In this document: piece after piece, positions 24,125-40,544 of the stretch
Layout of the letters: the number at the start of each line of letters is the position of its first letter
Position numbering within the stretch: position 1 is the first letter of the stretch
DNA from: Candidatus Hydrogenedentota bacterium
Lineage (GTDB): Bacteria; Hydrogenedentota; Hydrogenedentia; Hydrogenedentales; SLHB01
Length of the DNA: 64,000 bases
Direction: 5' to 3'
NCBI GenBank assembly: GCA_045863295.1
Contig: BTWA01000030.1
Location: 9,914 to 73,913, forward strand
The notes under the pieces: model-generated
The model's database searches: none
What the model was told of the DNA's origin: nothing
What the model saw: only the letters and a program-made list of their open reading frames with translations
Position numbers and translations under genes: made by a program

Positions 24125-25504
24125 TCAGGGTGTGTGTTTCAGTACACCTGTCCCGTAGGAACCCACCGTGAAGGTAACTTTGCCCCCGGCAGCCACGAAT
24201 GCCTTTCCACTGTCTTTGTCGGTGTACGTTCCGTCGGGCACGCCGCTCAACGTGCAATGGAGTGGGTCCTGCCATTCGTTAACCACGATGAGCCACAATC
24301 CGTCGGCGGCCTGTTTGGGCAGCACGCGCACGCCACGATCGACTGAGCCCCACGTTTCCGCGTAATTGATTTCAAGGGCGATTGCGGCTTCCGGCGCGGA
24401 CAGCACGGGCTGCAGGTCCGCCAATTCACGCAACACTTTCAAAACGTCTGCCCACAGTTGGGAATCCTTTTCGATGAATGCCGTGCCCCAATACAGAATG
24501 CCCCGCGCCCCATTCACAATGGTGTCGTAGGCCATGTAACGGGTCTCGGCCAGCGTTGGGCGGCGCTCGCGCTTTTTCGTGGCTTCGTCAGCGTTCTTGT
24601 CGAGATCAGCCCAACCGAATCCCTGGAGTACCATGAACACCGGCTTGCCGGGCGCGCTCTCCTGCATACGACGCGTGTACGCGCCGACACTGGTGCGGCT
24701 TCGATCGCCCAGATCCGAATGGCCAGTCCCCCAATCCGGCATGGGATAAATGTCGCACCCCACTGCATCAGCCGCCTGCGCAAACATGGCCAGTTGCGGT
24801 ATGGAATTGCGGGGGGCGTGATTCATCCAGATTGGGTGTTTGGGGTCCAACTGCTTGAGCGCGGCGTAGCCCGCCTTCATGCCTTCAGCCATGACCACCA
24901 TTCGATCGGCCGCGGTGTTGATTACATGTGCAGGCTGAGTCTCTGGCAGGCCGAGGGTCTTACTGAGCTCATCGGCCTTGGCTTCTCCCTCGACATACAA
25001 TCCTTCCCGCATGGTGCGTTGCGCGTCGTCAAACTGGGCCTGCATGGCCGTCTTCTGGGCCTCATCGGTAATCGCGGCGATGGCTTCCCGCTGTTGCTTG
25101 GCCTGGTAGTTGAACCGCCACTCCTGCGCGGCGTACCAGACATTCCACAGGGCTTCGTCAGGCACTTCCCAAACCATCATTGCGGGATGAGCCGCAAACT
25201 GGTCCGCCTTGGCCTTCAAGGCCGCCTCGCGGGCTTCCCGGTCAACGCTAAGGTCGAGGTCATACCCGGTATTCACCCAGCCTTTCATGCCGAGTGCCTG
25301 CAGCGCATCAAGTTCTTCCGTGGAATGCACGTACATCAAGTTCACGCCAGCATCGGCGGCTTGCTTTAAAGCCGCTTTTTCCTTTGGATACTCATACAGG
25401 CCAAGCACAAACGTCCGCTGGCCATCAACCACCAACATGCGATCTTCGGCGACTTGCACGTCCGCGGCGATGCCTGCCGCAAGCAGAAAAAGAATTGTTC
25501 CCAT
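24125..25504 (-). CDS. Secreted glycoside-hydrolase-like TIM-barrel protein
   Basis: Short signal peptide; WEVPDEA, LDPKHP, DAVGCDIYP, PVFMVLQGFG, NGARGILYW motifs typical of GH-like proteins. Confidence 0.65.
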   Translation of the reverse strand: MGTILFLLAAGIAADVQVAEDRMLVVDGQRTFVLGLYEYPKEKAALKQAADAGVNLMYVHSTEELDALQALGMKGWVNTGYDLDLSVDREAREAALKAKADQFAAHPAMMVWEVPDEALWNVWYAAQEWRFNYQAKQQREAIAAITDEAQKTAMQAQFDDAQRTMREGLYVEGEAKADELSKTLGLPETQPAHVINTAADRMVVMAEGMKAGYAALKQLDPKHPIWMNHAPRNSIPQLAMFAQAADAVGCDIYPMPDWGTGHSDLGDRSRTSVGAYTRRMQESAPGKPVFMVLQGFGWADLDKNADEATKKRERRPTLAETRYMAYDTIVNGARGILYWGTAFIEKDSQLWADVLKVLRELADLQPVLSAPEAAIALEINYAETWGSVDRGVRVLPKQAADGLWLIVVNEWQDPLHCTLSGVPDGTYTDKDSGKAFVAAGGKVTFTVGSYGTGVLKHTP

Positions 25505-25524: not shown

Positions 25525-26427
25525 CTATTGCGTTACGGCGGCCTGCGCCGGATGCTTCTTTAGAAACGCCAGAATGGCTTCTGCAAACGCGGGATCCGCA
25601 ATGGTCGAGATGTGGTCCCCGCCTTCGATATAGATCGATTCATGCCGGCCCATGACACCGTTCATCCGATCCACCCCGGCACGTAACGGATCGTCAGCCC
25701 CCACGATGGAGAGCAGCGGCACGGAGTTCGCGCGCAATTCCGCCTCGGCTACCACGAGTCCGTCCAAGGCACGCATCACGTGCGCAAGCGCTTCGGTGTC
25801 GTTCGTGAGACTCAATGTGAAGTTGATTTGGCGAAGCACCCACCCCTCGGGGGCTTTGCCCGGCGGCGATATCGCCTCGAAAAGCGGCCCGAAATTGCCC
25901 GTGTAATCCAGCGCATTCGCAATGTCGTACCGTTCGGCCTCGCCACTTTCCGGGTCTTCCCATCCGGCGCCACCGGCTACCGCGGAGATGACGCGATCCG
26001 GATGGAGGGTGACCAGTTTGAGCGTAATGAATGCGCCCATGGAATAGCCGACCACATGTGCCTTGGGAATTCCCAGGTGATCCATCAGGCGAATCACGTC
26101 CTCGCAAAAGGGAAGGCCGTATGCGGATTCCTCGTGAGGCTTCTCGCTCAATCCGTGGCCGCGATTGTCGATGGCGATGACTTTGTATTCCTTCGCCAAC
26201 TTTTGCAGCACGCCCGGCTTGCGCCAATTCAGGTCGGCGTTGGCGGCAAACCCGTGAATCAGGATGAGTGGTTCGCCTTCGCCTTCCACGGTGAAGTGAA
26301 TGCGTATGCCGTCCGAGTCGAAAAACTCGCCGGCAACCCGATCGGTGATGCTGTGATAGAGGTACGCCAGGCCGGCCAGGAAAGCACAAGCGACGAGAAC
26401 GACAACTATGCCGATCTTGCGTTTCAC
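25525..26427 (-). CDS. Alpha/beta fold hydrolase with N-terminal anchor
   Basis: LIHGF, DNRGHGLS, GYSMG nucleophile, GADD, GDHI. GTG start with AAGGAGG RBS, about 25 nt downstream of the rSAM-GNAT gene. Confidence 0.88.
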   Translation of the reverse strand: MKRKIGIVVVLVACAFLAGLAYLYHSITDRVAGEFFDSDGIRIHFTVEGEGEPLILIHGFAANADLNWRKPGVLQKLAKEYKVIAIDNRGHGLSEKPHEESAYGLPFCEDVIRLMDHLGIPKAHVVGYSMGAFITLKLVTLHPDRVISAVAGGAGWEDPESGEAERYDIANALDYTGNFGPLFEAISPPGKAPEGWVLRQINFTLSLTNDTEALAHVMRALDGLVVAEAELRANSVPLLSIVGADDPLRAGVDRMNGVMGRHESIYIEGGDHISTIADPAFAEAILAFLKKHPAQAAVTQ

Positions 26428-26451: not shown

Positions 26452-28380
26452 CTATAAGTCGTCGACGGAAATCCCGTAGACGTGAACATCCTGGTATTCA
26501 TCATGCACGAACAGGGCTTCGCGAAGCGTGCCTTCGCGTTTGAACCCCAGCCCCTCAAGGAACGATTGCAGTCCCTTTTCCGGCGCCGATGCGGGAATGG
26601 TGAGCCTGCGCACGGCCTGCTGCTTGGCGGCTTCATTGAGCAGTGTCCGGAAACCGCGGCGTACGTCTTCCGCGAGATAGTCCTGGTCGTCCCGCATGTA
26701 AATCCAACCCTGGGCGGCGCCGTGAAACCGTTCCGGCCGCATCTTAATCAGGCCGAAGGGTTTGCCATCGCGTTTGACCAGGATCATTTCCTTGTCCATG
26801 CCATGGGGATGGAGCGCATCCATTTCACGGTCGTAGCGGGTGGTGATCATGATGCCGCGCTCGGTATAGAGGAAATAAGCCGCACTGTTCCAGTTCTCCC
26901 ACTCCATCAGCATGTCCGCGTCGGCTTCTTCAATGGGCCTCATGCCCACCGACATGCGGAACGCGGCACGCACAAGCGTGAATAGCGAGGGCTTCTCGGT
27001 CCGCGTAAACAAGTGGTACATGCGCGTGAAATTCACGCCCTCGGCGGACAACAAATTGAAAGCGGACACCGCCGATTCCGCCCACGCCCGCTGTGCGTTG
27101 CACCAGGTCTCGTGCGGCAAACGGAAGGAACCGCTCAACGCCTGGTGCACGGCCGCCGTACCGCCTCCGCAGACGTGGCGCGCCCAGCACCGGCGGCAAA
27201 CACCGGTAGTGACCGATCCGATTTCATCGAACCTCGAACGTGCCTCTTCGTCCAATCTGCCTTCGGCGAGTGATCCCACCTTGAACGCTTCCTGGCCCAA
27301 AAAGCGCCATGAAGGATACAACGCGCCATCGGCATCCACGGCCAGTTCATTGGTGCCGCTGGGATCGTTTCGTTTCAACGGCACGCCGTCGTAAATCCGG
27401 TAAAAGAACCCTGCTATGGGATCGACCCGGAAATAGTGATGTTTCAACAGGCGGTTCGCGTAATATACCGCGGATTCGCTGAGCGCCTTGCGCATGGCTT
27501 CCGGATCCAGCGACGGATCCGCGGCATAGGATCCGTCGAGATCCAATTCAATGTGCGTGAAACCAGCCTTGTCCAATGTCTCGACGACGCCCGCGAAGTT
27601 CGGATGTCCCGGTTGAAGCACGATTCTACCGGTCACGCCTTCGCCGCCGGGCTGCACCGCTTTTGCCAGTTTCGCAAGAGTCCACGGTCCGGGTTGCGCG
27701 AACGATTCGAATGCATCCAGTTGCGATTCGGTCTGTTTTACTTCCAGCACAATCGAGATCGTATGTCCTTCCAACGCGTCACCGGATTTGGCTAACGAGA
27801 GATTGAGTACTCGAATGGAAACCGTCGCGGTTTTTCCGGCGAGGCCCGCGGCTCTGATGGCCTGACGGGACAGGCTAATGATCAAATCCGGGCTCTGCAA
27901 CTGGCCTTCGGCAATCCATTCTAGTTGCAGCAGTTTTTGATCGGCCGCCCGGCCCAGCAAAAGATCTATTGCATCTCGGCCCAGCGTCCTCGCTTGAAAT
28001 GGGGCTTCGGATGTCTTGGCGCCGAACCAACCTTTCTTCTTCGCGGGCGGGTCTTCCACCGTTTCCACGCCGGGAAGGCGAACCGAAAGCTTCTTCAGGC
28101 CCTTTTCGAGTTCGAATTCCTTCTGGAGATCCTCTTTCTTGGCCGGCGGAAGGATGGCACGTGTGGACCGGAGCCACTCGAGTTCGCCGATGACCTCTTC
28201 CAATTCAGTTGTATCGTGTTTTCCGGCAAGTTCTCGCACAATTCGGTTAAGCGGCGTGTGCGGATAATACTCCAGCACATCCCAGGAGATGTCGTCGCAT
28301 TCGAAGCAAAAACAGGTTTCGGGATCGATGGCAAACCGGCGGCCGCCCTGGACAAAACGATGTATGAGCGCTTGCGTCAT
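26452..28380 (-). CDS. RRE + degenerate radical-SAM/SPASM + C-terminal GNAT fusion protein (putative RiPP maturase/scaffold)
   Basis: N-terminus IHRFVQGGRRFAIDPET...DDISWDVL resembles the RRE of ranthipeptide maturases. The core is collinear with rSAM (LGRDAIDLL, LQLEWIAEG) but lacks CxxxCxxC and GGE. SPASM-like LAVDADGALYPSWRF...CRRCWARHVCGGGT...WC. C-terminal GNAT MRPIEEAD...LGFKREGTLREALF. Confidence 0.8.
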   Translation of the reverse strand: MTQALIHRFVQGGRRFAIDPETCFCFECDDISWDVLEYYPHTPLNRIVRELAGKHDTTELEEVIGELEWLRSTRAILPPAKKEDLQKEFELEKGLKKLSVRLPGVETVEDPPAKKKGWFGAKTSEAPFQARTLGRDAIDLLLGRAADQKLLQLEWIAEGQLQSPDLIISLSRQAIRAAGLAGKTATVSIRVLNLSLAKSGDALEGHTISIVLEVKQTESQLDAFESFAQPGPWTLAKLAKAVQPGGEGVTGRIVLQPGHPNFAGVVETLDKAGFTHIELDLDGSYAADPSLDPEAMRKALSESAVYYANRLLKHHYFRVDPIAGFFYRIYDGVPLKRNDPSGTNELAVDADGALYPSWRFLGQEAFKVGSLAEGRLDEEARSRFDEIGSVTTGVCRRCWARHVCGGGTAAVHQALSGSFRLPHETWCNAQRAWAESAVSAFNLLSAEGVNFTRMYHLFTRTEKPSLFTLVRAAFRMSVGMRPIEEADADMLMEWENWNSAAYFLYTERGIMITTRYDREMDALHPHGMDKEMILVKRDGKPFGLIKMRPERFHGAAQGWIYMRDDQDYLAEDVRRGFRTLLNEAAKQQAVRRLTIPASAPEKGLQSFLEGLGFKREGTLREALFVHDEYQDVHVYGISVDDL

Positions 28381-29180
28381 CAGTAGGCCCCCAGCGTGCC
28401 TTTGCTGCGGCTGTGGTTCTCCATCAGCTTAAACAAGGTCAAGCCGATGGCAGTCCAGATGCCGCAGTTAATCATCAGAAAATAAAACGAAGGATGCGTG
28501 AAAATCGCGGTTCCCTCTCCTTCCATGAGCACCAGCTTCAGACAAATGGCCGCGTCGGTAATCGGTGCGACGTGCGCAAGGGCCTGCAACACAATCGGCC
28601 AATTGTACATGTCTTCCGTGATGGTCAGGGCGAGCCCAATAAGAATAAGTCGCAATATGACGGCGATTTCCCCCGTCTGCTTGAAGACCAGCACCAAACC
28701 TCCGCTCATGAATCCGAAACCGATCAGATTCAAATAGGTCAGCACAAGGAGTAGAACCGTCAAGGCGGGGCTCGCATGGATTTGGCTGTCAAAGGTGGCG
28801 GCTACCATGGCGATCATGATGGACCAGGTAACAATGCTCATGAAGGCGGCGACGCATGACCGTGCGAGAAAATTGGTGATGAGTCCATGCGGGCTCATAT
28901 ACATCTGTTCCAGTTCCCCTGAACGCGCCATACCCTGCAATCCGGATGTGAACAGTCCGATAATGCCGAAGGCAAACATGCCGATGACAAGTCCCAGCGC
29001 CTTGTCCGTGATGAACTGGGAATACTGATTCGGATCGACCGTGCCGCTCGACAACGCCATGATGATGCCCACAAGCATGCCGTATCCCATGATCATGCCC
29101 ACCATGGTCTTGAACCAATACCGGCGCATGATGATGAACCCGCGGACCAACTCCGCTTTCATGACCAAAAAGAAACCCAT
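28380..29180 (-). CDS. ABC-2 type exporter permease
   Basis: About 6 TM; ARSGELEQMYMSP; ends with SRSKGTLGAY. Start re-set to the ATG at 29180; stop overlaps the next start. Confidence 0.85.
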   Translation of the reverse strand: MGFFLVMKAELVRGFIIMRRYWFKTMVGMIMGYGMLVGIIMALSSGTVDPNQYSQFITDKALGLVIGMFAFGIIGLFTSGLQGMARSGELEQMYMSPHGLITNFLARSCVAAFMSIVTWSIMIAMVAATFDSQIHASPALTVLLLVLTYLNLIGFGFMSGGLVLVFKQTGEIAVILRLILIGLALTITEDMYNWPIVLQALAHVAPITDAAICLKLVLMEGEGTAIFTHPSFYFLMINCGIWTAIGLTLFKLMENHSRSKGTLGAY

Positions 29181-29229
29181 GTCTGCTCCCATTATTGAAC
29201 GCGCGGGCGGGGCAGCCGCCGCTATCTTG

Positions 29230-30252
29230 TCAAGCCGGTCCGTCCGAGGTAAGCCGCAGGAACACATTTTCCAGCGTCTGTTGCCGCTCGCGAATGGAGC
29301 GTAATTCGACGCGATCGCCGCGTAGCGACTCAATCAGCCGGTACAAGGCCTCCGATCGATCGGAGGGATCGGACGGAACTTGCACGCTCAAGATCGGTCC
29401 ATTTTCACTGGGCAGCGATTCAGCACCATGAATGCCCGGAATCGCGCGAAGGCTATCCAAGTCCGGCATGCGGTCAAGATGCAGTTCGTACGCCTGATCG
29501 GAAAAGACGTCCAGCAACTCCTCCGTCGGCTTGCACGCGATCAATTTGCCATTTTCTATGATCCCGATGCGATCGCAGAGTTCCTGAGCGACGCCCATGT
29601 CGTGCGTGGTGACCACTACACTCTTTCCTTGGGTCCGGGTCATCTCGATGATCTTGTCTTTGATGTTCCGGCTGCTTTGCACGTCCAAACCTGTGGTCGG
29701 CTCGTCCAGGAGGAGTACTTCGGGATCCGTGATCAGCGCAATGCATATGGCCAGCTTCTGCTTCTGGCCCCGGGACAGCTTCCGCACCTCCGTGTTCATC
29801 TTGTCTTTCAGTCCGATGAACTCGAGCAGTTGTTCGGACCGCGCTCGCAATACGCGACCGCGCACGTCCCGCAAATTACCGAAATAGGCGAGGTTCTCCA
29901 GTGGCGTCAACGGCCAGATGCACGTTCGCGTGCCTTCCAAGACAACGCCCAGCTTACGGAGAACCTTGAGCCGGTTCGACTCCACGTAGAGGCCGCCGAC
30001 ATACACCTCGCCGCTGCATGGCTTCACCAAGCCCGATATCATCTTCACGGTCGTCGTTTTGCCCGCGCCGTTGCGGCCCAGCAAACCGAAAATTTCGCCC
30101 CTGCGCACGCCGAATGACACGTCGTTTACCGCATGGACCGTTTTCCTGCGGTACCATTTGCGCACACCGGAATCCTCGTCACGGGTGAGCACGTGGCGGG
30201 TATGGAACACTTTGTTGATACCACGCAATTCGACGGTGAATTCGGCGCTCAT
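29230..30252 (-). CDS. ABC exporter ATP-binding subunit
   Basis: GRNGAGKTT, LSRGQKQK, LLLDEPTTGLD, TTHDM. Confidence 0.93.
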   Translation of the reverse strand: MSAEFTVELRGINKVFHTRHVLTRDEDSGVRKWYRRKTVHAVNDVSFGVRRGEIFGLLGRNGAGKTTTVKMISGLVKPCSGEVYVGGLYVESNRLKVLRKLGVVLEGTRTCIWPLTPLENLAYFGNLRDVRGRVLRARSEQLLEFIGLKDKMNTEVRKLSRGQKQKLAICIALITDPEVLLLDEPTTGLDVQSSRNIKDKIIEMTRTQGKSVVVTTHDMGVAQELCDRIGIIENGKLIACKPTEELLDVFSDQAYELHLDRMPDLDSLRAIPGIHGAESLPSENGPILSVQVPSDPSDRSEALYRLIESLRGDRVELRSIRERQQTLENVFLRLTSDGPA

Positions 30253-31013
30253 TTTGCTTGCTGCCTCGAGGGCATGTACACCTTGTCCATTTCCCGGGCG
30301 GCCAGTTCTGGATCGCCCAACTCGTCGACTTTCATCAGATACTCCAAATAGGCGATCTCGATGTCGCGCATGGCGTGAATGACCATGACAAGGACAAAGC
30401 TGTTGGTCACATGATACAAAACGCCCAGCAAGAGCGAGAATCCCACGAATTCCAGTGACACCATGAAGCTGTTCTCGAAAAAGTGCTTGTGCACGACCAC
30501 AAAAAGTGCCGCGACCACTACAATACCCGTGAACGCCGCCGCGTTTGCGGACATGAACTGTTCGAGAAACACAACCGAAAACTTCTGCGCGGAAACGCGC
30601 CAGATGAGTTCTTCGGCCACGGCCACCCCAAGGAAACGCAACAACACGATTGGACTGTCAACGGTAAAATTCCACAAATCGCCGAAGTCGAAGAAGTGGC
30701 TCCAGGCATCCTTGATCGAATTGTGTGTGATCAAAAGCGACAGGCCGAACACCATGTGTCCAGCCAACAATCCCAATCCGATATAGAGTGGCGAGACCAG
30801 TTGCCGCGAGAATACGTCGAGACACAGGGCAAAGTAGACGGCCAGCCAAAAAATGGGCGCTTGTATGAAAACATGCACTCTACGTATGCCACCGGTGGGT
30901 TGTTCCCCTTCCACGTACCGGTTACTGATCAGGGAAAAGACAACGTGCCCTCCGAGCAAGGCGAAAAAAGCGCCAACAGTCCAGCCCGGAATGGAGACCG
31001 CCTCGACGATCAT
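30249..31013 (-). CDS. CPBP (CAAX/Rce1/Abi) family intramembrane metalloprotease
   Basis: Multi-TM; AEELIWR (EExxxR), FVVVH (FxxxH), IHAMRD (HxxxN/D). Confidence 0.85.
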   Translation of the reverse strand: MIVEAVSIPGWTVGAFFALLGGHVVFSLISNRYVEGEQPTGGIRRVHVFIQAPIFWLAVYFALCLDVFSRQLVSPLYIGLGLLAGHMVFGLSLLITHNSIKDAWSHFFDFGDLWNFTVDSPIVLLRFLGVAVAEELIWRVSAQKFSVVFLEQFMSANAAAFTGIVVVAALFVVVHKHFFENSFMVSLEFVGFSLLLGVLYHVTNSFVLVMVIHAMRDIEIAYLEYLMKVDELGDPELAAREMDKVYMPSRQQAK

Positions 31014-31642
31014 TCCGCCGCCTCCGGCTGCACCCTTCGGTCTTCGATGTCGGCAATCATCGTCTTCAGATCGATCCCTTTCAGCTTGCGATGGAAACTC
31101 TCACGCAAAACTTCAAATTCGGATCGAAGCAGACCATATCCGTACATCTCGAACATTTGTCCATCCCGGGCCACGTGATCGGGTAACACCAATTCGCGTT
31201 TTGCCCCGGAGAGTTCGAAGTTTCGCCACGAACGGCTATTGAAGCCGTAAATGTAGATGTTGATGCGATGCATGTTCAGAATGTGGAAACAGTATTCAAG
31301 AACACGGTAAAACGAGATCGTTGCCAGCATACCGTTCCGCTTGGACTCGATAATGTACGAGTCGATATTGCAAGAACGGTTGCGCCAACTGATATTGACT
31401 ACACTGAAGAGTCCAAACGGCCCGTACTTGTTGGAATCCGCCACGAAATAGATCGTAGGGGGCATGGAATGCGGCGCGGAGCGGCCAAGCATGCCGACGA
31501 TTTGTTCGCGCACTTGGCGCGGCGAGCGCGCGGGATCCCCGTACAGAAAGCGTTGAAATGCGGGGTCCTGCATCCACGAGACCACCGTTTCCAAATCGTC
31601 GCGGTCCGCGCGACGTATAAACACACTAGACTTAAGCGCCAT
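31010..31642 (-). CDS. GNAT family N-acyltransferase (RimJ/RimL-like)
   Basis: IRRADRDDL, ISWRNRSC, YCFHILNMHRI, FNSRS, GAKRELVL, YGLLRSEF. Confidence 0.85.
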   Translation of the reverse strand: MALKSSVFIRRADRDDLETVVSWMQDPAFQRFLYGDPARSPRQVREQIVGMLGRSAPHSMPPTIYFVADSNKYGPFGLFSVVNISWRNRSCNIDSYIIESKRNGMLATISFYRVLEYCFHILNMHRINIYIYGFNSRSWRNFELSGAKRELVLPDHVARDGQMFEMYGYGLLRSEFEVLRESFHRKLKGIDLKTMIADIEDRRVQPEAAE

Positions 31643-31644
31643 GA

Positions 31645-32190
31645 TCAGGCCTCCGCCGCGGCGGGTGCGGCAAGGCGATCGTATTCCGGCCGCAACATGC
31701 CGAATCCGAGCAAATCCGCGGCCTTGCCGTTTTGCAGCAGATGTCCCCGGTACGTCACTTCTCGCTTAGCACCCATTCTAGCGAGCGCGGAAAGAGCGGT
31801 TGTGTCGGAGGCGGCCACACGCGTGGACACTCGATGAAGATTGAGTTCGTCGAAGCAATACCGGAGTAGACCCAGCCAACCATCAAACACAATATCTTCC
31901 GTGCGATGCGCGGGAATCACGTAGAGACTGGAGGCGCATTGACGATTGCGCCACTGCATTTCGTAGATGGCGGCGAGGCCCACCGGCTGGTCTTTGTCGT
32001 CAGTCAGCATAAAAAATCCGATGCCGGCATTCTGCGAATTCAGGGCACCACCCAGCAGTGCTATCGCCTGCGCACCGTGCTGACGCCAGGACCGCCGGCT
32101 GTCACCAAAGACAAACTCGCGGAACACGGGGTCCTCGGCCCATTCGAGGACATAGTCGAGGTCGGCCCGCTCAAGACGTCGCAAGCGCAC
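31645..32190 (-). CDS. GNAT family N-acyltransferase (RimJ/RimL-like)
   Basis: LRRLERADL, MQWRNRQC, YCFDELNLHRV, GAKREVT, FGMLRPEY; a paralog of the downstream GNAT. Confidence 0.85.
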   Translation of the reverse strand: MRLRRLERADLDYVLEWAEDPVFREFVFGDSRRSWRQHGAQAIALLGGALNSQNAGIGFFMLTDDKDQPVGLAAIYEMQWRNRQCASSLYVIPAHRTEDIVFDGWLGLLRYCFDELNLHRVSTRVAASDTTALSALARMGAKREVTYRGHLLQNGKAADLLGFGMLRPEYDRLAAPAAAEA

Positions 32191-32743
32191 TGTATCGTTC
32201 CTTGTAGGCTTCCAAATGTTGGCAGCGGGATCGGGGCAGCGAATGCGATTCGAGATCGTAGTAGCGGCCGTGAGTATAGATCATGTCCCGTTGAATACCA
32301 TCGCACACGAAACCGTGACGCACGAGAAACGCGCGGTACAATTCCTCTGTGGTCAGGCAACTGGTTTGAATCTTGTTGAGTTTCTTCTCGACAAACGTGC
32401 CGTATGCGATGAAACCAAATACTTCGTCGGCGAGGGGCTGGCCGTAATCGGACTCATCGGCCATGGCGAGCATCATTTCCGCGAACGCGGATTCCATCTT
32501 GGCGCTACGCATCACGAAACAACCCCGAATATCCCCTTGCAGATTCTCAACGACAAAGAAGACGCCGGAAAGAAAGTCTTTCCGGCCAAGCATTTCGCGC
32601 AATTCGTCCAATGTGGGGATGTAGATTTCCCGCGAAGGACCGATCAGGAATGAACGAGGCGATGACATATCGTACAACTGCCACAGGGCGTACGCGTCAT
32701 CGGGTTCGCTCGAACGGATTATGCCGTGTTCCAATGCAATCAT
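32171..32743 (-). CDS. GNAT family N-acyltransferase (RimJ/RimL-like)
   Basis: IRSSEPDDA, FVEKKLNKI, HGFVCDGIQRDMIYTHGRYYD. Confidence 0.8.
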   Translation of the reverse strand: MIALEHGIIRSSEPDDAYALWQLYDMSSPRSFLIGPSREIYIPTLDELREMLGRKDFLSGVFFVVENLQGDIRGCFVMRSAKMESAFAEMMLAMADESDYGQPLADEVFGFIAYGTFVEKKLNKIQTSCLTTEELYRAFLVRHGFVCDGIQRDMIYTHGRYYDLESHSLPRSRCQHLEAYKERYSALATS

Positions 32744-32919
32744 GATGCGTCAAATTCTATCGGTAATGGGTTGCCACAGACGGAAAAGCCGATTGAATCG
32801 CTGCCATGGGTCTGTTCCAACAATTATGCCCGAATCGAGTTGGCCAACACTACCCCGTGGGTGGCGTGCGCCTTCCAATCGGATGCAATGTCGCTTTTCC
32901 TCCGGCACTCGCCGCATTC

Positions 32920-32949
32920 AAAAAAAAGCGGGGTTGAAGCCAACCCCGC
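32920..32949 (-). terminator. Rho-independent terminator after the peptide genes
   Basis: Perfect 9-bp stem GCGGGGTTG/CAACCCCGC (32928-32949) with a 4-nt loop, followed on the minus strand by T8 (A8 at 32920-32927 on +). Confidence 0.85.
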
Positions 32950-32981
32950 GAAACGTCCCGTATGCAAACAGCGCCGTGCGG

Positions 32982-33194
32982 CTAAAAGAACAAACGCTCT
33001 TCGTCGTCTCCACCCGTGTCACCGCCGCCGTCTCCCCCGTCATCCGGGGGATCGACGATCCCGCCGCCACCAATGATAAAGTTCTTCTTGCCGAAAACAA
33101 CGTCGTAGTAGCCATTCAGGACGGCATTTACAAAATCGATGGCGGCCGTGGCTTCCAGGATCTTCGTTTTCGTTAGTTTGCGCACGTGCTTCAT
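32982..33194 (-). CDS. Putative RiPP precursor peptide A (70 aa)
   Basis: MKHVRKLTKTKILEA-TAAIDFVNAVLNGYYDVVFGKKNFII-GGGG plus acidic tail; GGAG RBS; leader shared with the two neighbours. Confidence 0.75.
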   Translation of the reverse strand: MKHVRKLTKTKILEATAAIDFVNAVLNGYYDVVFGKKNFIIGGGGIVDPPDDGGDGGGDTGGDDEERLFF

Positions 33195-33243
33195 GGACGA
33201 TCTCCAGACCGACCCGGCCGCGCCGGATCCGTCAGCACCCAGC

Positions 33244-33381
33244 CTATCCCTTCAGGCCACCGATGGAGTTCTTCGTGGAAAACAGGAAGTTCAACCATGC
33301 GTTCCAGAACGTATTCAAAAAGTCATCATACGAAGCGGCCTGACGTATCCGCGCTGCGGAAATGTTTCGCACATGTCGCAT
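33244..33381 (-). CDS. Putative RiPP precursor peptide B (45 aa, not in ORF track)
   Basis: Hand translation: MRHVRNISAARIRQAASYDDFLNTFWNAWLNFLFSTKNSIGGLKG*. GGAGGAG RBS 5 nt before the ATG; aligns without gaps to precursor A. Confidence 0.8.
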   Translation of the reverse strand: MRHVRNISAARIRQAASYDDFLNTFWNAWLNFLFSTKNSIGGLKG

Positions 33382-33479
33382 GAACACTCCTCCATGTAGT
33401 TCGTGAAATGGCGCTGACTACGGCAGCGTCATCACGGGTATCAGCGGTAATTCATAACCCCAACACGGCCGTATCGGCG

Positions 33480-33701
33480 TCAGGTATTCTCTTCCGGATT
33501 CTTCTCTTCGCTATACGCCGTGAGCGCGGCCAAGAACCCCTGCAAGCCAGTCACCGAGGCAGTGAAGATGGCGCTAAACGCAGTGACGAATACGGTTACA
33601 ACGTCAAAACCCAGCGTCAATATGGAGATTAGTACCTCCAGATTGGTCTGATCGGCCTCGGCACGTAACGGTTGCTTGGAAATCATGGTCAGGTGTTTCA
33701 A
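33480..33701 (-). CDS. Putative RiPP precursor peptide C (73 aa)
   Basis: TTG start with GGGAGA RBS; MKHLTMISKQPLRAEA leader, long hydrophobic Thr/Ser-rich core, EEKNPEENT end. Confidence 0.72.
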   Translation of the reverse strand: MKHLTMISKQPLRAEADQTNLEVLISILTLGFDVVTVFVTAFSAIFTASVTGLQGFLAALTAYSEEKNPEENT

Positions 33702-33910
33702 GGTGATTCTCCCGAAATACTGTCTTCTACCCTGTTGTAGAGCCCACCAGAATGTGAACCCCTCAACAGCTCAAAAGTTCCGCCACAACGCTGCACCAAG
33801 GACATCGCCCTGCGTGTGATCCACGTCCAGCAACGTTACAGCGGATTCTGCGGATGGTGCGTCAATAATTTACACCCACGCAGAGAACCGAGACCAACAC
33901 GCGTTCGACG

Positions 33911-33939
33911 AGTCTAGCACCAAACCATCCCGTTATCAA
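33911..33939 (-). promoter_or_regulatory. Sigma70-type promoter upstream of the peptide cluster
   Basis: Minus strand reads TTGATA, 17-nt spacer ending TGC, TAGACT; same TGC-extended -10 style as the rpoB, rpsL and tRNA promoters. Confidence 0.6.
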
Positions 33940-34112: not shown

Positions 34113-35618
34113 TTAACGGACACCGGCAACTTCCACACTGTCGTACCCAAAGGATTGGGCGCTCGGAAGGTCCGAATGGCCCATCAGCCGAATATCAATG
34201 GCACGTGCGGCCTCACGGCCTTCGTGAATGGCCCAGACCACCAGCGACTGTCCGCGGCGCGCGTCGCCTGCCGCAAAGACATTGGGCTTGCTTGTGCTGT
34301 ACTGGCCGTATTCGGCTTTCACATTTCCACGTGGATCTAATTCCAGCCCAAGTTGTTTGGGCAAAACATGTTCGGGATGAACAAAGCCCATGGCCAAGAG
34401 CACCAGTTCACACTCAATCTCGAACTCGCTGCCAGCCACTTCCTTCATTTGCATCCGGCCCGAATCGTCTTTCACCCATTCGACACGGACCGCCTGGATA
34501 GCGCGCAATTTCCCGTTGCCGTCTCCCAGGAACTCCTTAGTAAGCACGCTGAAATCGCGGTCGCCCCCTTCTTCGTGGCTCGAAGACGTACGATAAATAA
34601 CGGGCCACAGGGGCCAAGGGGTTGACGGATTCTCGCCCTCGGGCGGACGAGGCAACAACTCCAACGACCACACGTGCTTCGCCCCCTGCCGCAGACTGGT
34701 GCCGAGGCAGTCGGAACCCGTGTCGCCGCCACCGAGAATTACCACGGTTTTGCCATTGGCCAAAATCGCGTTTTCTACGACTTCCTTTCCCGAAACCCTA
34801 CGGTTTTGCTGGGTCAGAAAATCCATGGCGAAGTGTACGCCGTCCAGTTCACGTCCGGGGATCGGGAGATCCCGGGGTTGGGTCGACCCTGTGGTCAACA
34901 GAATGGCGTCAAATTCTTTCTCCAACTCAGCGGCGGTGACGTCTTTGCCCACTTCCACGCCGCACCGGAAAATGACGCCTTCAGCGGCCATCTGCTTCAG
35001 CCGCCGGCGCACGACGTCCTTGTTCAGCTTGAAATCCGGAATACCGTACATCAGCAAGCCACCAGCCTCATCCGCGCGCTCGAAAAGGGTGACTGTATGG
35101 CCAGCCCGGTTCAGTTGTTGCGCGGCGGCCAACCCAGCCGGACCGGACCCAATTACCGCGACTTTCTTTCCGGTCCGGACTTCCGGCAACTCGGGATTGA
35201 TCCAGCCTTCCGCGAAGCCGCGGTCGGCGATGGAACGTTCGTTCAGTTTGATGGTGACGGGCGGATCCGTGATTCCCAGCACGCACGATGCCTCGCACGG
35301 CGCTGGGCACACTCGACCAGTAAACTCCGGGAAGTTATTGGTGGAAAGCAACGTATCCAAGGCGCGTTTCCAATCCAAATCCTTCACACCGTCGTTGAAA
35401 TCGGGAATGATGTTCCCCAGGGGGCAGCCGGACATGCAAAACGGGATGCCGCAATTCATGCAGCGGTACCCCTGCTCCTTCATTTTCGAATCATCGAAAT
35501 CCTGGAGGAACTCGTCCCAATGCTTTGTGCGCTCTTCTACAGGCCGGTACGACGGCGTTTCCCGCTTGTATACCATGAACCCTTTTTCTTTCGAGGGTCC
35601 ATTGTTATTTGACGGCAT
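34113..35618 (-). CDS. gltD: Glutamate synthase small subunit
   Basis: RCMNCGIPFCMSGCPLGNIIP, NNFPEFTGRVCPAPCE, GSGPAGLAAA, GGGDTGSDC, RRGQSLVVWAI. AGGAGG RBS before the ATG at 35618. Confidence 0.95.
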   Translation of the reverse strand: MPSNNNGPSKEKGFMVYKRETPSYRPVEERTKHWDEFLQDFDDSKMKEQGYRCMNCGIPFCMSGCPLGNIIPDFNDGVKDLDWKRALDTLLSTNNFPEFTGRVCPAPCEASCVLGITDPPVTIKLNERSIADRGFAEGWINPELPEVRTGKKVAVIGSGPAGLAAAQQLNRAGHTVTLFERADEAGGLLMYGIPDFKLNKDVVRRRLKQMAAEGVIFRCGVEVGKDVTAAELEKEFDAILLTTGSTQPRDLPIPGRELDGVHFAMDFLTQQNRRVSGKEVVENAILANGKTVVILGGGDTGSDCLGTSLRQGAKHVWSLELLPRPPEGENPSTPWPLWPVIYRTSSSHEEGGDRDFSVLTKEFLGDGNGKLRAIQAVRVEWVKDDSGRMQMKEVAGSEFEIECELVLLAMGFVHPEHVLPKQLGLELDPRGNVKAEYGQYSTSKPNVFAAGDARRGQSLVVWAIHEGREAARAIDIRLMGHSDLPSAQSFGYDSVEVAGVR

Positions 35619-38600
35619 GCTGAACCTCCTGAGCGACGGCCTTGCCATTGTCTCCACCGGCTTGCCGTTCCATTTCACGCAACACCCGCGCGTAATCGCG
35701 CGGCATCACCCGGACAAAGTGCTGAGACTCAGAAGTCCAGTTGTCGAGGATCCGCTTCGCCACGGTGCTGCCGGTGTACTGAACATGCCGATCCAGCATG
35801 TACTTCAAATCGTTCAGACTCTTTTCGTTCATCGGCTTCAAGTCAACAGACTCTTGATTGCACAGAATGGGAAAGGAACCGTTTGGGTCGTACACGAACG
35901 CAATGCCACCGCTCATGCCTGCCGCGAAGTTCCGCCCGGTCGGCCCAAGAATGGCCGCACGGCCGCCAGTCATGTACTCGCACCCATGATCGCCCACGCC
36001 TTCGACAACCGCCCAGGCGCCGCTGTTGCGCACGCAGAAGCGCTCGCCGCCAATGCCGCGAAAATACGCTTCTCCGCCCGTGGCGCCGTATAGGGCCACA
36101 TTGCCTACCACGATGTTCTGCTCGGGTGTCATGGGGCACTCGGCCGGCGGTGTCACAATAATCTTGCCGCCGGAAAGTCCCTTGCCGCAGTAGTCGTTGG
36201 CTTCGCCGGTCACGTTCAAAGTCACGCCTTTGATCGAAAACGCGCCAAAGCTTTGGCCCGCCTGACCTGTGCAATCGATCCACACGGTGTCTTCAGGCAA
36301 AGTGCCGGTTTCGAGACCGACCTTGTGAACGCGCGTCAATTCACTGGAAAGCATCGTTCCGACGGTACGGTTGATGTTCTTTATTTCCGTCGAAAACCGT
36401 ACCTTTTCAACTTGGTCGAAAGATGCAGCTGGTTTGAGCGCCGCGCTTGCACGCACAAGAAGGTCGTTGTCCAACGCCTTCTCCAGTCCGTGATCCTGGG
36501 TCTGGCTGTGATAAAGCGTCTCCCCTTTCCACGGCGTCTCCACATGAAGCAGGCGGGTAAGGTCGAGCTTCTTTGCCTTCCAGTGATCCGGCAGGGGGTC
36601 GTATTCGAGCCGGTCGGTGCGGCCGATCATTTCATTAACGGTGCGGAAACCGAGTTCCGCCATGATGGCCCGCACTTCCTCGGCAATGAAGAAACACAAA
36701 TTCACAACGTACTCGGGCTTGCCCGCGAATTTCTTGCGCAGTTCCGCATCTTGTGTCGCAATGCCGACCGGGCAGGTGTTCAAATGACACTTGCGCATCA
36801 TGATACACCCCGTCGCAATGAGCGGCAATGTCGCCATGCCCACTTCGTCGGCGCCCAGCAGGAACGCAATGGCCACATCGCGGCCGGTCTTAATCTGGCC
36901 GTCCGTTTGTACGCGAATTCGGCTTCGCAAATTGTTGGACACCAGAACCTGGTGGGTCTCGGAGAGGCCCAACTCCCACGGCAGACCCGCATGCTTGATC
37001 GAACTCAGGGGCGACGCGCCGGTTCCACCATTGTCGCCGCTGACAAGTACCAAATCGGACTTGCCCTTGGCCACGCCCGCGGCGACCGTACCCACACCCA
37101 CTTCCGACACGAGCTTCACCGAGATGTTCGCGTACTTGTTCGCGTTCTTCAGATCATGAATGAGTTGCGCCAAGTCTTCGATCGAATAGATGTCGTGATG
37201 CGGCGGAGGCGAAATCAATTCCACGCCGGGCGTGGAATAGCGAATGCGCGCAATCTCCGGGAACACTTTGTGCCCCGGCAATTCGCCGCCTTCACCGGGC
37301 TTCGCACCCTGCGCCATTTTGATTTGGAGTTCGTCCGCATTGACAAGGTATTCGTTGGTCACGCCAAAGCGGCCGGAGGCCACTTGCTTAATCGCGCTGC
37401 GACGCAGATCGCCATTGCCATCCGCCACGAATCGTTTTGGATCTTCGCCGCCTTCGCCGGTGTTGCTTCGGCCGCCGATACGGTTCATCGCAATCGCCAG
37501 CGTTTCGTGCGCTTCCTTGCTGATCGAACCAAACGACATGGCCCCCGTGCAGAACCGCTTCACGATTTCTTTCGCGGATTCCACTTCCTCGATAGGAACC
37601 GGGGTGCCTTTCTTGAACTTCAACAACGAACGCAGCGCGGCCAACGACCGGTTGCGATCATTGATGAGGGCGCTGAACTCCCGGAATTTCTCCTGGCTAT
37701 TCGCGCGCACGGCATGTTGCACCCGCGACACGGTGTCGGGGTTGTACATGTGAAATTCGCCGCGCCGGCGCCAGCGGTATACACCGCCCGGATCCAACTC
37801 GCGGGGCCGTGCATGCGCCTTCGGATACGCAATGGAATGACGCATGAGCGTCTCGCGGCACACGTCCTCCATCTCGATTCCGCCAATGCGCGAAGCTGTA
37901 CCCGCAAAGCATCGGTCAATCAGGATTGGGCCGAGGCCCAGGGCTTCGAAGATTTGCGCGCTTCGGTAGCTGTGCTGCGTCGAGATGCCGATCTTTGACA
38001 TCGTCTTCAGCATGCCCGCTTCAACCGCGTGAATGAAATTCGCGACGGCTTGCCCCGGTTCCTTTTCCACCAGGATTTCCCGTTGGAGTTGGTCCTCGAT
38101 CGTGGCGAAGGCGAGGTATGGATTCACCGCGCCCGCGCCGTATCCCGTCAAGAGGCAGAAGTGCATAACTTCGCGGGGCTCGCCGGATTCCACCACGATA
38201 CCGCAATGGCTGCGAAGCCCTTTGCGCACCAGGTGATGGTGCACACCGCCCGTCGCGAGCAAGCTCGGAATCGCGGCATTCTTTTCACCCACACCGCGAT
38301 CGGACAGCAGAAGGAGCGTGTACCCCGCTTGGGTAGCGGCTTCCGCCTCATTGCAAATGCGATCGAGGTGTCTCTCAAGCGCGCCAAAGCCCTCTTCCGC
38401 AGGAAACAGCGTCGAAATGACTTTCGTCTTCAGACCTGGCTTGTCCAAGTGCTTGATATAGTCGAGTTGCTCGTTCGTGATGATGGGCGACTTCAAATGA
38501 AGCTGTTGGCAGTCTTCCGGAGTCGCATCGAGCAGATTCTTCTCGCGGCCGATATCGGTTTCCAGCGACATGACGATTTCTTCGCGGATCGGATCGATCG

Positions 38601-40215: not shown

Positions 40216-40544
40216 CAAGAGAATTAGGCAGTTAGAGTTGGCCTGCTCGTCCTGTGTAACCTGGACTTGGTACATGTTGCCCAGCACAGCGAACCAGGAC
40301 CCTGCCGTCAGGCAGCGCATCGCTACCGAAAATATATACCCGAAACGTTCGTGTTTCCGGCGAAACCCTTGCGAGATCCGGACCGGCGAGCAGGAGCTAC
40401 AACTCCTTGCTAATACTCATCTTAAGTCATGTCGCACGAACCAATTCACGCCGTAGCCACGCGTCGCAGCGGCATGACCTCCCTTCGCGATCAGCTCACA
40501 CGCATCGCGAAAAAAGCGGGCTAAACAGAAGAATCCGTCGGAAG

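Follow-up and report, generated by a model that had tools for sequence, protein, structure and literature searches.

What is made by a gene block in which small leader-bearing peptides are encoded next to a peptide maturase that seems to have lost its radical chemistry? The question is raised by the minus-strand block between positions 33939 and 26452 of the window, by which we mean the whole 64,000-nucleotide stretch of Candidatus Hydrogenedentota DNA analyzed here (GenBank assembly GCA_045863295.1, contig BTWA01000030.1, positions 9,914 to 73,913 of the forward strand). The block is a single tight run of three small peptide open reading frames (ORFs), a hairpin and then seven genes, the last of which encodes a 642-residue fusion protein. 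A sequence-only reading of this DNA had suggested a system for peptides that are made on ribosomes and modified after translation (RiPPs), in which the leader and the RiPP recognition element (RRE) of a ranthipeptide (SCIFF) pathway had been repurposed for acylation by GNAT enzymes. The components it listed, namely three short peptides, a terminator, three GNATs, a CPBP protease, the ATPase and permease of an ATP-binding cassette (ABC) transporter and the fusion protein, are all present on the minus strand. We favor, with a probability of roughly 0.55, the interpretation that the locus is a SCIFF-derived, non-radical peptide maturation and export operon with a housekeeping role, which probably N-acylates a positional lysine or a new N-terminus of its peptides.

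Ancestry and cysteine motifs of the fusion protein

The fusion protein combines the following parts, with the Pfam and NCBIfam scores given here and below judged against the curated cut-off of each model:

28380-26452, minus strand: fusion protein, 642 residues
28141-28380, minus strand: RRE-like winged-helix domain (fusion residues 1-80), aligned to CteB residues 5-80
27379-28140, minus strand: degenerate radical S-adenosylmethionine (SAM) barrel (residues 81-334), without a CxxxCxxC motif
27016-27378, minus strand: SPASM remnant (residues 335-455), NCBIfam TIGR04085 at 39.5 bits against a cut-off of 27
26455-26949, minus strand: GNAT domain (residues 478-642), Acetyltransf_4 at 22 bits, under the cut-off of 24.3

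A profile of 54 members of the fusion family (A1) matched the SCIFF maturase CteB (5WGG) with an E of 2.2e-51, the alignment extending from query residues 4 to 435 against chain residues 5 to 445 with the N-terminal domain included. CteB was the best solved match of the fusion and was also ranked first by Foldseek (E 2.6e-17), followed by SpeG, RimJ and RimL. RimL-type acetyltransferases matched residues 523-635 of the fusion profile (RimL E 5e-7). The AlphaFold model of the fusion has a mean predicted local distance difference test (pLDDT) score of 86.2 and consists of three strands and three helices at the N-terminus, the barrel, the SPASM part and a GNAT fold; the RRE-like domain is modeled at a pLDDT of around 90. 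Pfam reported neither Radical_SAM nor SPASM on the protein and only the weak GNAT match, and its NCBIfam matches to maturases were sub-threshold: not_ScfB at 76 bits, a nif11-type radical SAM maturase at 72 bits and the SCIFF maturase TIGR03974 at 71.2 bits against a cut-off of 425. TIGR03974 is nonetheless within the top three NCBIfam matches of the window fusion and is the top match of the deep family members P0157 and P0168.

The family is small, with only 50 proteins found at E ≤ 1e-30 among 1.84 billion representatives, the full-length ones having roughly 600-680 residues and the rest being fragments. The next matches beyond it are non-fused enzymes of 450-490 residues with an intact CxxxCxxC, three of which (P0179, P0181, and P0193) pass the SCIFF-maturase cut-off. 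CxxxCxxC itself was found in none of the 41 aligned members of the fusion family, and in a check of 18 proteins the motif was absent from all nine fusion-family proteins and present in all nine non-fused relatives. The position of CNLRCKYC in CteB is taken in the fusion family by a variable, cysteine-free stretch with insertions and deletions (residues 106-124, pLDDT below 50). We therefore consider the descent of the fusion from a SCIFF/ranthipeptide-type maturase, with loss of the radical SAM motif and acquisition of GNATs, to be well supported by sequence comparison.

The scaffold had been described beforehand as dead. That description is correct for the radical SAM cysteine motif, which is missing family-wide, but the protein is not wholly dead, as four cysteines of the SPASM remnant (C395, C398, C404, and C427, arranged as Cx2Cx5C plus one downstream cysteine) match one auxiliary Fe-S site and show no variation either among the 41 aligned members or in the 54 sequences of A1. 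We take these four to be the ligands of the second, fully coordinated SPASM auxiliary cluster. The seven-cysteine SPASM pattern is not found, the cysteines that align to the first auxiliary cluster of CteB having been lost. In CteB the first auxiliary cluster has three cysteine ligands and the second has four, according to the available text of PMC10177961.

A further motif, CxCxxC (C23, C25, and C28; window positions 28297-28314), lies on the third strand of the RRE-like domain, each of its cysteines being present in 38-40 of the 41 aligned members. This strand corresponds to the CteB strand beside which the leader binds; the accessible part of PMC8326336 describes the CteA leader as bound in the form of a β-strand, with helix 3 of the CteB RRE on one side and strand 3 on the other. 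CxCxxC may be a new metal site, with the near-invariant histidine 3 of the peptide leaders as a possible partner. It is missing from the true SCIFF maturases and from the deepest branch of the fusion family (L041/P0158, P0157, and P0168), which also has no radical SAM motif and keeps Cx2Cx5Cx3C, and in this branch the loss of Fe-S sites looks as though it may have been caught at an intermediate stage. The L041 locus (G001:C9:70700-84700), from the deepest branch of the phylum, encodes peptides with the same leader and with Lys-Lys near the C-terminus.

These cysteines might be read differently, with the fusion as a metalloprotein in which non-radical chemistry of its own, or the handling of peptides by way of a metal, matters most (for instance redox chemistry on two-cysteine peptides or a metal-bridged leader histidine), and with the GNATs in a secondary role. 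The complete invariance of C395, C398, C404, and C427, the conservation of C23, C25, and C28 on what is the leader-binding strand in CteB (PMC8326336, accessible part), the nearly invariant leader H3 and the existence of one conserved peptide type with two cysteines would all be in keeping with that idea. Yet the deepest branch has the same cluster without CxCxxC, and the three peptides of the window (pepA, pepB, and pepC) have no cysteine. A fully ligated SPASM auxiliary cluster is, moreover, usually seen as an electron conduit or a structural element, and we consider a central metalloprotein role to be very unlikely.

Peptides with a SCIFF-like leader

The three small ORFs at the head of the block each follow a Shine-Dalgarno-like site and have closely similar N-termini:

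33701-33480, minus strand: pepA, 73 residues, TTG start behind GGGAG, N-terminus MKHL
33381-33244, minus strand: pepB, 45 residues, N-terminus MRHV
33194-32982, minus strand: pepC, 70 residues, N-terminus MKHV

A pattern scan upstream of the first GNAT gene (GNAT1) in 19 loci gave 66 ORFs, of which 61 (one to five per locus) were kept. Five were dropped by eye as spurious, being Arg/Cys/Pro-rich frames that are distant from GNAT1 or overlap the terminator region (L033_4885, L034_4145, L045_4422, L047_5419, and WIN_3084).

As the SCIFF precursor model TIGR03973 is blind to these peptides, the likeness of their leaders was shown with real SCIFF peptides instead. The reference was drawn from 80 Bacillota loci around true SCIFF maturases, 73 of which had small Cys-rich ORFs upstream; 19 of the 73 were dropped for want of a SACKTS core, leaving 54 with the SCIFF core, and the 39 of these that could be anchored on xH[ILV] make up the logo, so that H3 on the SCIFF side is fixed by the anchoring. 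Residue counts in the 39 SCIFF peptides and in the 61 peptides here are as follows:

Position 2: SCIFF, K in 31; peptides here, K in 51
Position 3: SCIFF, H in 39 (fixed by the anchor); peptides here, H in 56
Position 4: SCIFF, I in 37; peptides here, I/L/V in 54
Position 5: SCIFF, K/T; peptides here, R/K in 41
Position 6: SCIFF, T in 35; peptides here, variable
Position 7: SCIFF, I/V/L in 38; peptides here, I/V/L/M in 59
Position 8: SCIFF, N/S/T in 31; peptides here, S/T in 59

We accept this likeness as homology of a short recognition sequence, matching the homology of the RRE. The earlier proposal of SCIFF descent for the leader and RRE pair has in this way been upheld by the match of the fusion to CteB, by the homology of the N-terminal RRE and by the likeness of the leaders to real SCIFF precursors.

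A structure prediction of the fusion in complex with pepB lends weak support to leader binding, scoring 0.35 against 0.01 for the best of three controls, with the runs sharing at least 45% of contacts and a partner pLDDT of at least 36. Of the solved complexes on which such predictions were judged, 116 of 157 reached the mark, as did 2 of 215 mismatched pairs; at scores of 0.60 or under only 18 of the 157 solved complexes reached it, along with both of the mismatches that passed. The fusion-pepB pass may reflect likeness only, because the CteB-CteA complex has already been solved.

Beyond the leader the peptides fall into recognizable types. One has a hydrophobic core with a Lys-Glu or Lys-Asp end, another has two cysteines and ends in Lys-x-Pro, and a third has Asn-Lys-Asp-Pro-x-Asn-Pro followed by a Ser/Thr-rich tail. 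The type that we call T5 has 39-45 residues, with an aromatic-rich core ending in KKNE plus two or three residues, and adjoins GNAT1 in 18 of the 19 loci; it has 47% mean column identity phylum-wide and a high helical hydrophobic moment (0.62), and T5 peptides were also recovered without the leader pattern. In the window, pepB is a divergent T5 member (T5 profile A2, E 4.4e-18), pepC is a T5-like paralogue with a Gly/Asp-rich C-terminal extension (A2, E 3.8e-8), and pepA, which has orthologues in L031 and L032, has a long hydrophobic core with a net charge of -7 and Lys-Asn-Pro near its C-terminus. The peptides had been described as amphipathic, which holds clearly for T5, the most conserved type, and only for that type; the cores of pepA, pepB, and pepC are neutral or anionic.

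Three residues, H3, A14, and one C-terminal lysine, are nearly invariant across the 61 peptides (alignment A3). All 61 have a lysine after residue 15, the first of which lies at a median of eight residues from the C-terminus, and lysine accounts for 12.7% of residues in the fourth quintile of the core compared with 1.4-2.3% in each of the first three. No NHLP or Nif11 family of Pfam or NCBIfam was found on pepA, pepB, or pepC, none of NCBIfam was found on the 61 peptides, and the double-glycine motif is absent from the leaders. The peptide profiles A2 and A3 had only chance-level matches to all PDB chains (E 0.17 or worse), with no CteA chain among them.

The source genome (G000) has 11 small ORFs with the leader pattern, eight of them with a Shine-Dalgarno-like site, compared with two and none, respectively, in the reversed genome. 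Five leader-bearing ORFs with such a site lie away from any maturase (C74:925, plus strand; C74:1280, plus; C10:94836, minus; C25:6034, minus; and C27:48166, plus; loci L137-L140). Ten further genomes, from three genera, have the 55-residue peptide of C74:1280 conserved over its full length with 65-77% identity. The occurrence of unlinked, conserved leader-bearing peptide genes suggests that precursors are also encoded in trans.

Gene order and distribution in the phylum

Between the peptide genes and the fusion the block is laid out as follows, together with the sites found at its head:

33911-33939, minus strand: sigma-70-like promoter match, TTGATA-17-TAGACT with TG, 9 of 12 consensus positions
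about 32918-32949, minus strand: intrinsic-terminator-like hairpin followed by T8, with a 9-bp stem including 7 G-C pairs, between the peptide genes and the enzyme genes
32743-32171, minus strand: GNAT1, 190 residues, Pfam Acetyltransf_4 at 29.6 bits against a cut-off of 24.3
32190-31645, minus strand: GNAT2, 181 residues, Acetyltransf_3 at 44.9 bits against 25.4
31642-31010, minus strand: GNAT3, 210 residues, Acetyltransf_3 at 46.9 bits against 25.4
31013-30249, minus strand: CPBP (Rce1-like) intramembrane glutamic protease, PF02517 at 36 bits against 22.4
30252-29230, minus strand: DrrA-like ABC ATPase, ABC_tran at 102 bits and TIGR01188 (drrA) at 237 bits, under the cut-off of 312
about 29186-28380, minus strand: ABC-2 type permease, start uncertain, the open frame extending to 29333

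The coordinates bear out the earlier statement that most of the enzyme genes overlap or abut, the junctions consisting of overlaps of 20, 4, 4, and 1 nt and one 2-nt gap. The permease had no match in Pfam or NCBIfam; a protein Atlas groups it with ABC2_membrane clusters (score 0.98; structural TM 0.86), and it is kept in all 20 of the loci compared. The promoter that had been proposed at 33939-33911 was not sustained, as the region has two promoter-like sites where shuffled sequences give 4.3, and a site within a count below the shuffle expectation is not counted here as evidence. A terminator scan of the region gave 11 sites where 10.4 were expected, the hairpin at 32949-32928 being the strongest of them. 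Most of the 18 other loci have a G+C-rich hairpin at the equivalent place, after their last peptide gene, and in six of the 18 (L031, L032, L035, L042, L046, and L049) it is followed by at least five T.

To either side of the block lie genes that we do not count as part of it. Directly upstream of the peptide genes are gltD (521 residues) and gltB (1571 residues), encoding glutamate synthase subunits (34113-40320, minus strand). gltD is upstream in 8 of the 20 loci and also lies beside the separate T5-GNAT1 piece of genome G006 that is described below; we regard this adjacency as synteny only, without an evident functional link. Downstream, an α/β hydrolase of 300 residues (25525-26427, minus strand) starts 24 nt past the fusion stop and is followed by a 459-residue protein (24125-25504). 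Both were considered as parts of the system and rejected, the 20 loci offering no counterpart of either; they are probably outside the system, although they may be co-transcribed with it here.

Comparison of 20 neighborhoods taken from 11 families showed the order peptide(s)-GNAT1-GNAT3-CPBP-ATPase-permease-fusion to be colinear in 18. The other two are true cluster splits and not truncations at contig ends, with all parts present in the genome: in G006, gltD-T5-GNAT1 (C23; L147/L152) is on a different contig from the segment running from GNAT3 to the fusion (C40; L038), and in G072, T5-GNAT1-GNAT3-CPBP-ATPase (C42; L048) is separated from permease-fusion (C43; L148/L151). T5 is directly upstream of GNAT1 in both, and the persistence of this adjacency despite the splits suggests a specific pairing.

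GNAT2 does not belong to the conserved order. A second GNAT3-like match was found only in six genera of the source family (g1, g13, g16, g17, g18, and g19), and GNAT2 is a lineage-specific duplicate of GNAT3, with only two stand-alone GNATs and the fused one as the ancestral set. The four GNAT domains that had been reported are all in the locus, but one of them is this duplicate. The GNAT1 profile matches the fused GNAT domain at E 2.3e-13 (in G006) and 8.7e-9 and matches GNAT3 at only 5.5e-4, by which the fused domain is nearer to GNAT1 than GNAT3 is.

The distribution of the cluster across the phylum was followed with three markers:

Fusion: 124 of 135 phylum genomes; 83 of 86 high-quality genomes
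T5 peptide profile (A2): 110 of 135; 77 of 86
GNAT3 profile (A4), E ≤ 1e-30: 116 of 135; 82 of 86

Of the 66 genera, 61 have the fusion, almost always as a single copy. T5 is found in 109 and GNAT3 in 115 of the 124 fusion-positive genomes, while 10 of the 11 fusion-negative genomes are without both T5 and GNAT3; the exception, with T5, is G073, which is 88% complete and in 430 contigs. Eight of those 10 triple-negative genomes come from one family, so that few loss events are needed; of the other two, one is a 60%-complete genome and one is the only genome of family f15. The co-occurrence counts were read by hand from three tables and related genomes are not independent, hence no statistic is attached to them. 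All taxon-bearing source names of the fusion matches are Hydrogenedentes or Hydrogenedentota, save for one "Bathyarchaeia" label that could not be checked.

Outside the assembled genomes, near-identical DNA of the locus was seen in sludge, activated-sludge and bioreactor metagenome contigs from 13 studies. In four metagenome rows half or more of the sampled words are present, and one of these rows may be the source sample. Of four contig runs compared with the locus, one was labeled "RNA?" and is probably DNA.

Co-occurrence with the fusion was a check that the sequence-only reading had set for itself, and the peptides, GNATs, CPBP and ABC genes were found to accompany the fusion phylum-wide. 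A bacteriocin setting, in which that reading had noted such proteases and exporters to be common, is made less likely by the same comparison, as near-universal syntenic conservation favors a physiological role. We interpret the distribution of the module as that of a core-genome function, for which a bacteriocin role is unlikely: a module that is near-universal, single-copy and syntenic, with a strongly conserved T5 core, probably serves cell physiology (a signal, the envelope or the surface) and not strain-level antagonism.

Chemistry, export and relation to known systems

Profile searches place all three kinds of GNAT, namely GNAT1, GNAT3, and the one in the fusion, among the amine N-acetyltransferases SpeG, RimL, RimJ, and AAC(6′). 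The nearest solved relatives of GNAT1 are SpeG and RimL-like acetyltransferases, and GNAT3, which is the most conserved enzyme of the cluster (64% mean column identity), matches SpeG at E 3.8e-18. An amine acceptor would fit this grouping, the obvious candidates being the positional lysine or an N-terminus exposed by cleavage.

Spermidine/diamine N-acetyltransferases are the solved proteins most closely related to GNAT1 and GNAT3, and the enzymes might instead act on a small molecule, for example by SpeG-like polyamine acetylation, followed by ABC export, with the small ORFs as membrane micro-proteins or regulators. This would leave much to be accounted for, namely the fusion of an RRE-homologous domain with a GNAT, the N-termini that resemble leaders and are shared with SCIFF precursors, the retention of T5 beside GNAT1 in split clusters and the unlinked peptide genes with the same leader, and it is the least probable of the explanations that we weighed.

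The protease and the transporter are recognizable at the level of motifs. EExxxR, FxxxH, and HxxxD/N, which we take to be the catalytic motifs of CPBP proteins, are conserved across 20 sequences of the protease. Two cuts seem plausible, and the enzyme might make either: removal of the leader after Ala 14, or removal of a tail behind the lysine, as Rce1 cuts behind a lipidated cysteine. The transporter pairs a DrrA-like ATPase that lacks a C39 peptidase domain with a permease of the ABC-2 kind.

On the interpretation that we favor, several small precursors would share the N-terminal recognition sequence M-K-H-[ILV]-[RK]-x-[ILVM]-[ST], to which the RRE-like domain of the fusion would bind in the manner of the homologous CteB-CteA complex. 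The fusion would no longer cleave SAM, would probably keep one auxiliary [4Fe-4S] site as a structural element, and would hand the peptide over to the GNAT domain at its C-terminus as well as to the two or three GNATs encoded separately. All of these GNATs would transfer an acyl group from acyl-coenzyme A (CoA) or an acylated carrier protein (acyl-ACP) to an amine, the likeliest acceptor being the lysine about eight residues from the C-terminus and the alternative a newly exposed N-terminus. The CPBP protease would then trim the peptide, either of its leader or of the polar tail behind the lysine, and the DrrA-like ABC-2 pump would export the product from the cytoplasm. The hairpin 3′ of the peptide genes would serve to keep precursor mRNA in excess over enzyme mRNA.

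Several observations weigh against this interpretation. None of the 61 peptides was matched by TIGR03973 at E ≤ 10, by which membership of the SCIFF precursors at the level of hidden Markov models is rejected; the absence of a match follows from the cores here being without the six cysteines of SCIFF, and on the whole genome the model gave six sub-threshold matches elsewhere and none over its cut-off. The leader likeness spans about eight residues, and positions 2-5 were partly preselected by the search pattern, while positions 7, 8, 11, and 14 were not. A T5 match is missing in five of the six fusion-positive genomes of family f7. As for the GNATs themselves, conservation of the canonical loop that binds the pyrophosphate of CoA, Q/R-x-x-G-x-G/A, is lacking in GNAT1, in GNAT3, and in the fused domain; the GNAT3 position that aligns to the SpeG tyrosine, which we take to be the general acid, is not conserved either, and these two departures make the use of acyl-CoA uncertain. 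GNAT3 also has eleven invariant or nearly invariant arginines, which could fit a polyanionic donor such as transfer RNA (tRNA). Acylation and secretion, finally, are both inferred.

The same features of the GNATs, together with a cluster that has no acyl-carrier or fatty-acid gene within it, would suit GNAT-fold proteins that use aminoacyl-tRNA or another charged donor, as Fem- and L/F-type transferases do, on the lysine or the N-terminus to give a branched or extended peptide. GNAT-fold aminoacyl-tRNA-dependent enzymes have been reviewed for natural-product pathways (PMC12945691, in the part of the review available). The matches obtained, however, are to the acetyl-CoA-dependent SpeG, RimL, and AAC(6′), with E down to 3.8e-18, and there is no Fem or L/F-transferase chain among the matches listed. 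Such a donor is, in our estimation, rather improbable.

Export raises a further alternative, that the peptides leave the cell essentially unmodified, like phenol-soluble modulins (PSMs) or class II bacteriocins, the pump and the CPBP protein serving export and self-protection and the GNATs and fusion being accessory (e.g., for a detoxifying acetylation) or relics. Among the immunity genes of bacteriocin loci CPBP proteins are common, and hydrophobic or amphipathic helical peptides beside a DrrA-like ABC-2 pump are what such a pathway would comprise. The staphylococcal PSMs, for instance, are small helical hydrophobic or amphipathic peptides, and their Pmt exporter consists of a DrrA-like ATPase and ABC-2 permeases; unlike the peptides here, they come without a leader, without a partner of the RRE type and without GNATs dedicated to them. 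Class II bacteriocin loci have a GG leader and a C39-peptidase ABC transporter, and neither feature was found here. It would also be hard to see in an accessory or a relic why the fusion is the best-conserved marker of the cluster (124 of 135 genomes) and keeps its RRE-homologous domain, with a leader-like N-terminus on every peptide, or why the genes are translationally coupled, and the peptide cores are neutral or anionic. We judge unmodified export to be fairly unlikely.

In a bolder form of the acylation model, the cluster would make lipopeptides with a housekeeping role throughout the phylum, and the pathway would be a prokaryotic counterpart to CAAX processing. Here the radical-dead SCIFF maturase would be a leader-binding scaffold only, with a metal that may link the leader histidine to the strand of CxCxxC; the positional lysine near the C-terminus would receive its acyl group from the GNAT domains; the CPBP protease would recognize the lipidated residue and cut off the polar tail; and the ABC-2 pump would deliver the acyl-anchored helices to the envelope. 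This would constitute both a new RiPP class and a new lipidation and sorting route, and we put it forward as an unlikely, speculative extension. Within the CPBP family, MroQ processes a signaling peptide (AgrD) and LnsB assists lipoprotein N-acylation, according to the available text of PMC7387801. The protease here resembles the CAAX proteases, MroQ, and LnsB in belonging to PF02517, whose relatives process lipidated or signaling peptides at the membrane (PMC7387801, same portion), and in keeping the catalytic Glu-Glu, His, and His. It differs from LnsB-type members, which are without the catalytic motifs, and the cluster differs from CAAX processing in having no prenyltransferase.

Returning to the SCIFF-derived maturation and export operon, its closest known counterpart is the SCIFF/ranthipeptide system itself (ScfA/CteA with ScfB/CteB; TIGR03973 and TIGR03974). 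The two share full-length homology of their maturases (CteB against fusion residues 4-435, RRE included), a precursor N-terminus of the form K-H-I-[K/R]-x-[ILV]-[N/S/T], a short precursor gene upstream of the maturase, and near-universality in one large clade, as described for SCIFF in the accessible part of PMC8326336; according to that text, the wide occurrence of SCIFFs in Clostridia speaks against an antimicrobial role. Unlike a SCIFF maturase, the fusion has neither CxxxCxxC nor the cysteines of the first auxiliary cluster and scores 71 bits against 425. The loci here, moreover, have up to five precursor types each, besides the unlinked same-leader genes of the source genome, and add a fused GNAT, two more GNATs, a CPBP protease and an ABC-2 pump, and they occur in Hydrogenedentota, not Bacillota.

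Acylation of RiPPs by GNATs has its own precedents. Goadsporin, with GodH, is a GNAT-acylated RiPP. In selidamides (KspN/PhaN) the GNATs are encoded beside ribosomal precursors and acylate Lys or Orn side chains that are placed at the ends of the core (PMC8784127, in the portion available); the positional lysine of the 61 peptides here is a putative acceptor. The GNAT-acylated RiPPs (selidamides, nostolysamides, lipolasso and goadsporin) combine NHLP, Nif11, lanthipeptide or lasso precursors with class-defining enzymes, as far as the available parts of their descriptions go, in contrast to the cluster here, in which GNAT domains are the only recognizable modifying enzymes and one of them is fused to an RRE/pseudo-radical SAM scaffold. 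Scaffolds of a related kind are named in NCBIfam. The GG-Bacteroidales pseudo-radical SAM proteins and the grasp-with-spasm SPASM protein are without the SAM-cluster cysteines and lie in peptide-modification loci. Neither family is among the 16 NCBIfam matches of the fusion at E ≤ 0.1, and we know of no GNAT fusion in either.

The feature that marks RRE-dependent RiPPs, conserved-leader precursors beside an RRE-homologous protein with which they are co-conserved across genomes, is found in this cluster. As had been said at the outset, no named RiPP class was found to fit it, and no published description of the cluster was found in the literature searched, most subscription journals and supplements being outside that search. 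We describe it as an RRE-dependent peptide maturation system, which may prove to be a new RiPP class. Mining tools that are keyed on Radical_SAM or SPASM would miss the system, because Pfam reports neither domain and the precursors match no model.

If this interpretation is true, the locus is a clear case in which a radical SAM peptide maturase has become a scaffold for recognition without radical chemistry and has acquired another kind of catalytic domain by fusion, and RiPP pathways can switch chemistry while the leader and RRE pair stays. The three or four GNATs, with their many natural substrates, could be useful peptide-acylating enzymes if active. In the phylum itself, which is common in sludge and sediments, the cluster is present in about nine of ten genomes; it would also be a second, independent core-genome modified peptide beside the clostridial SCIFF, with several conserved cores that provide a handle on its role.

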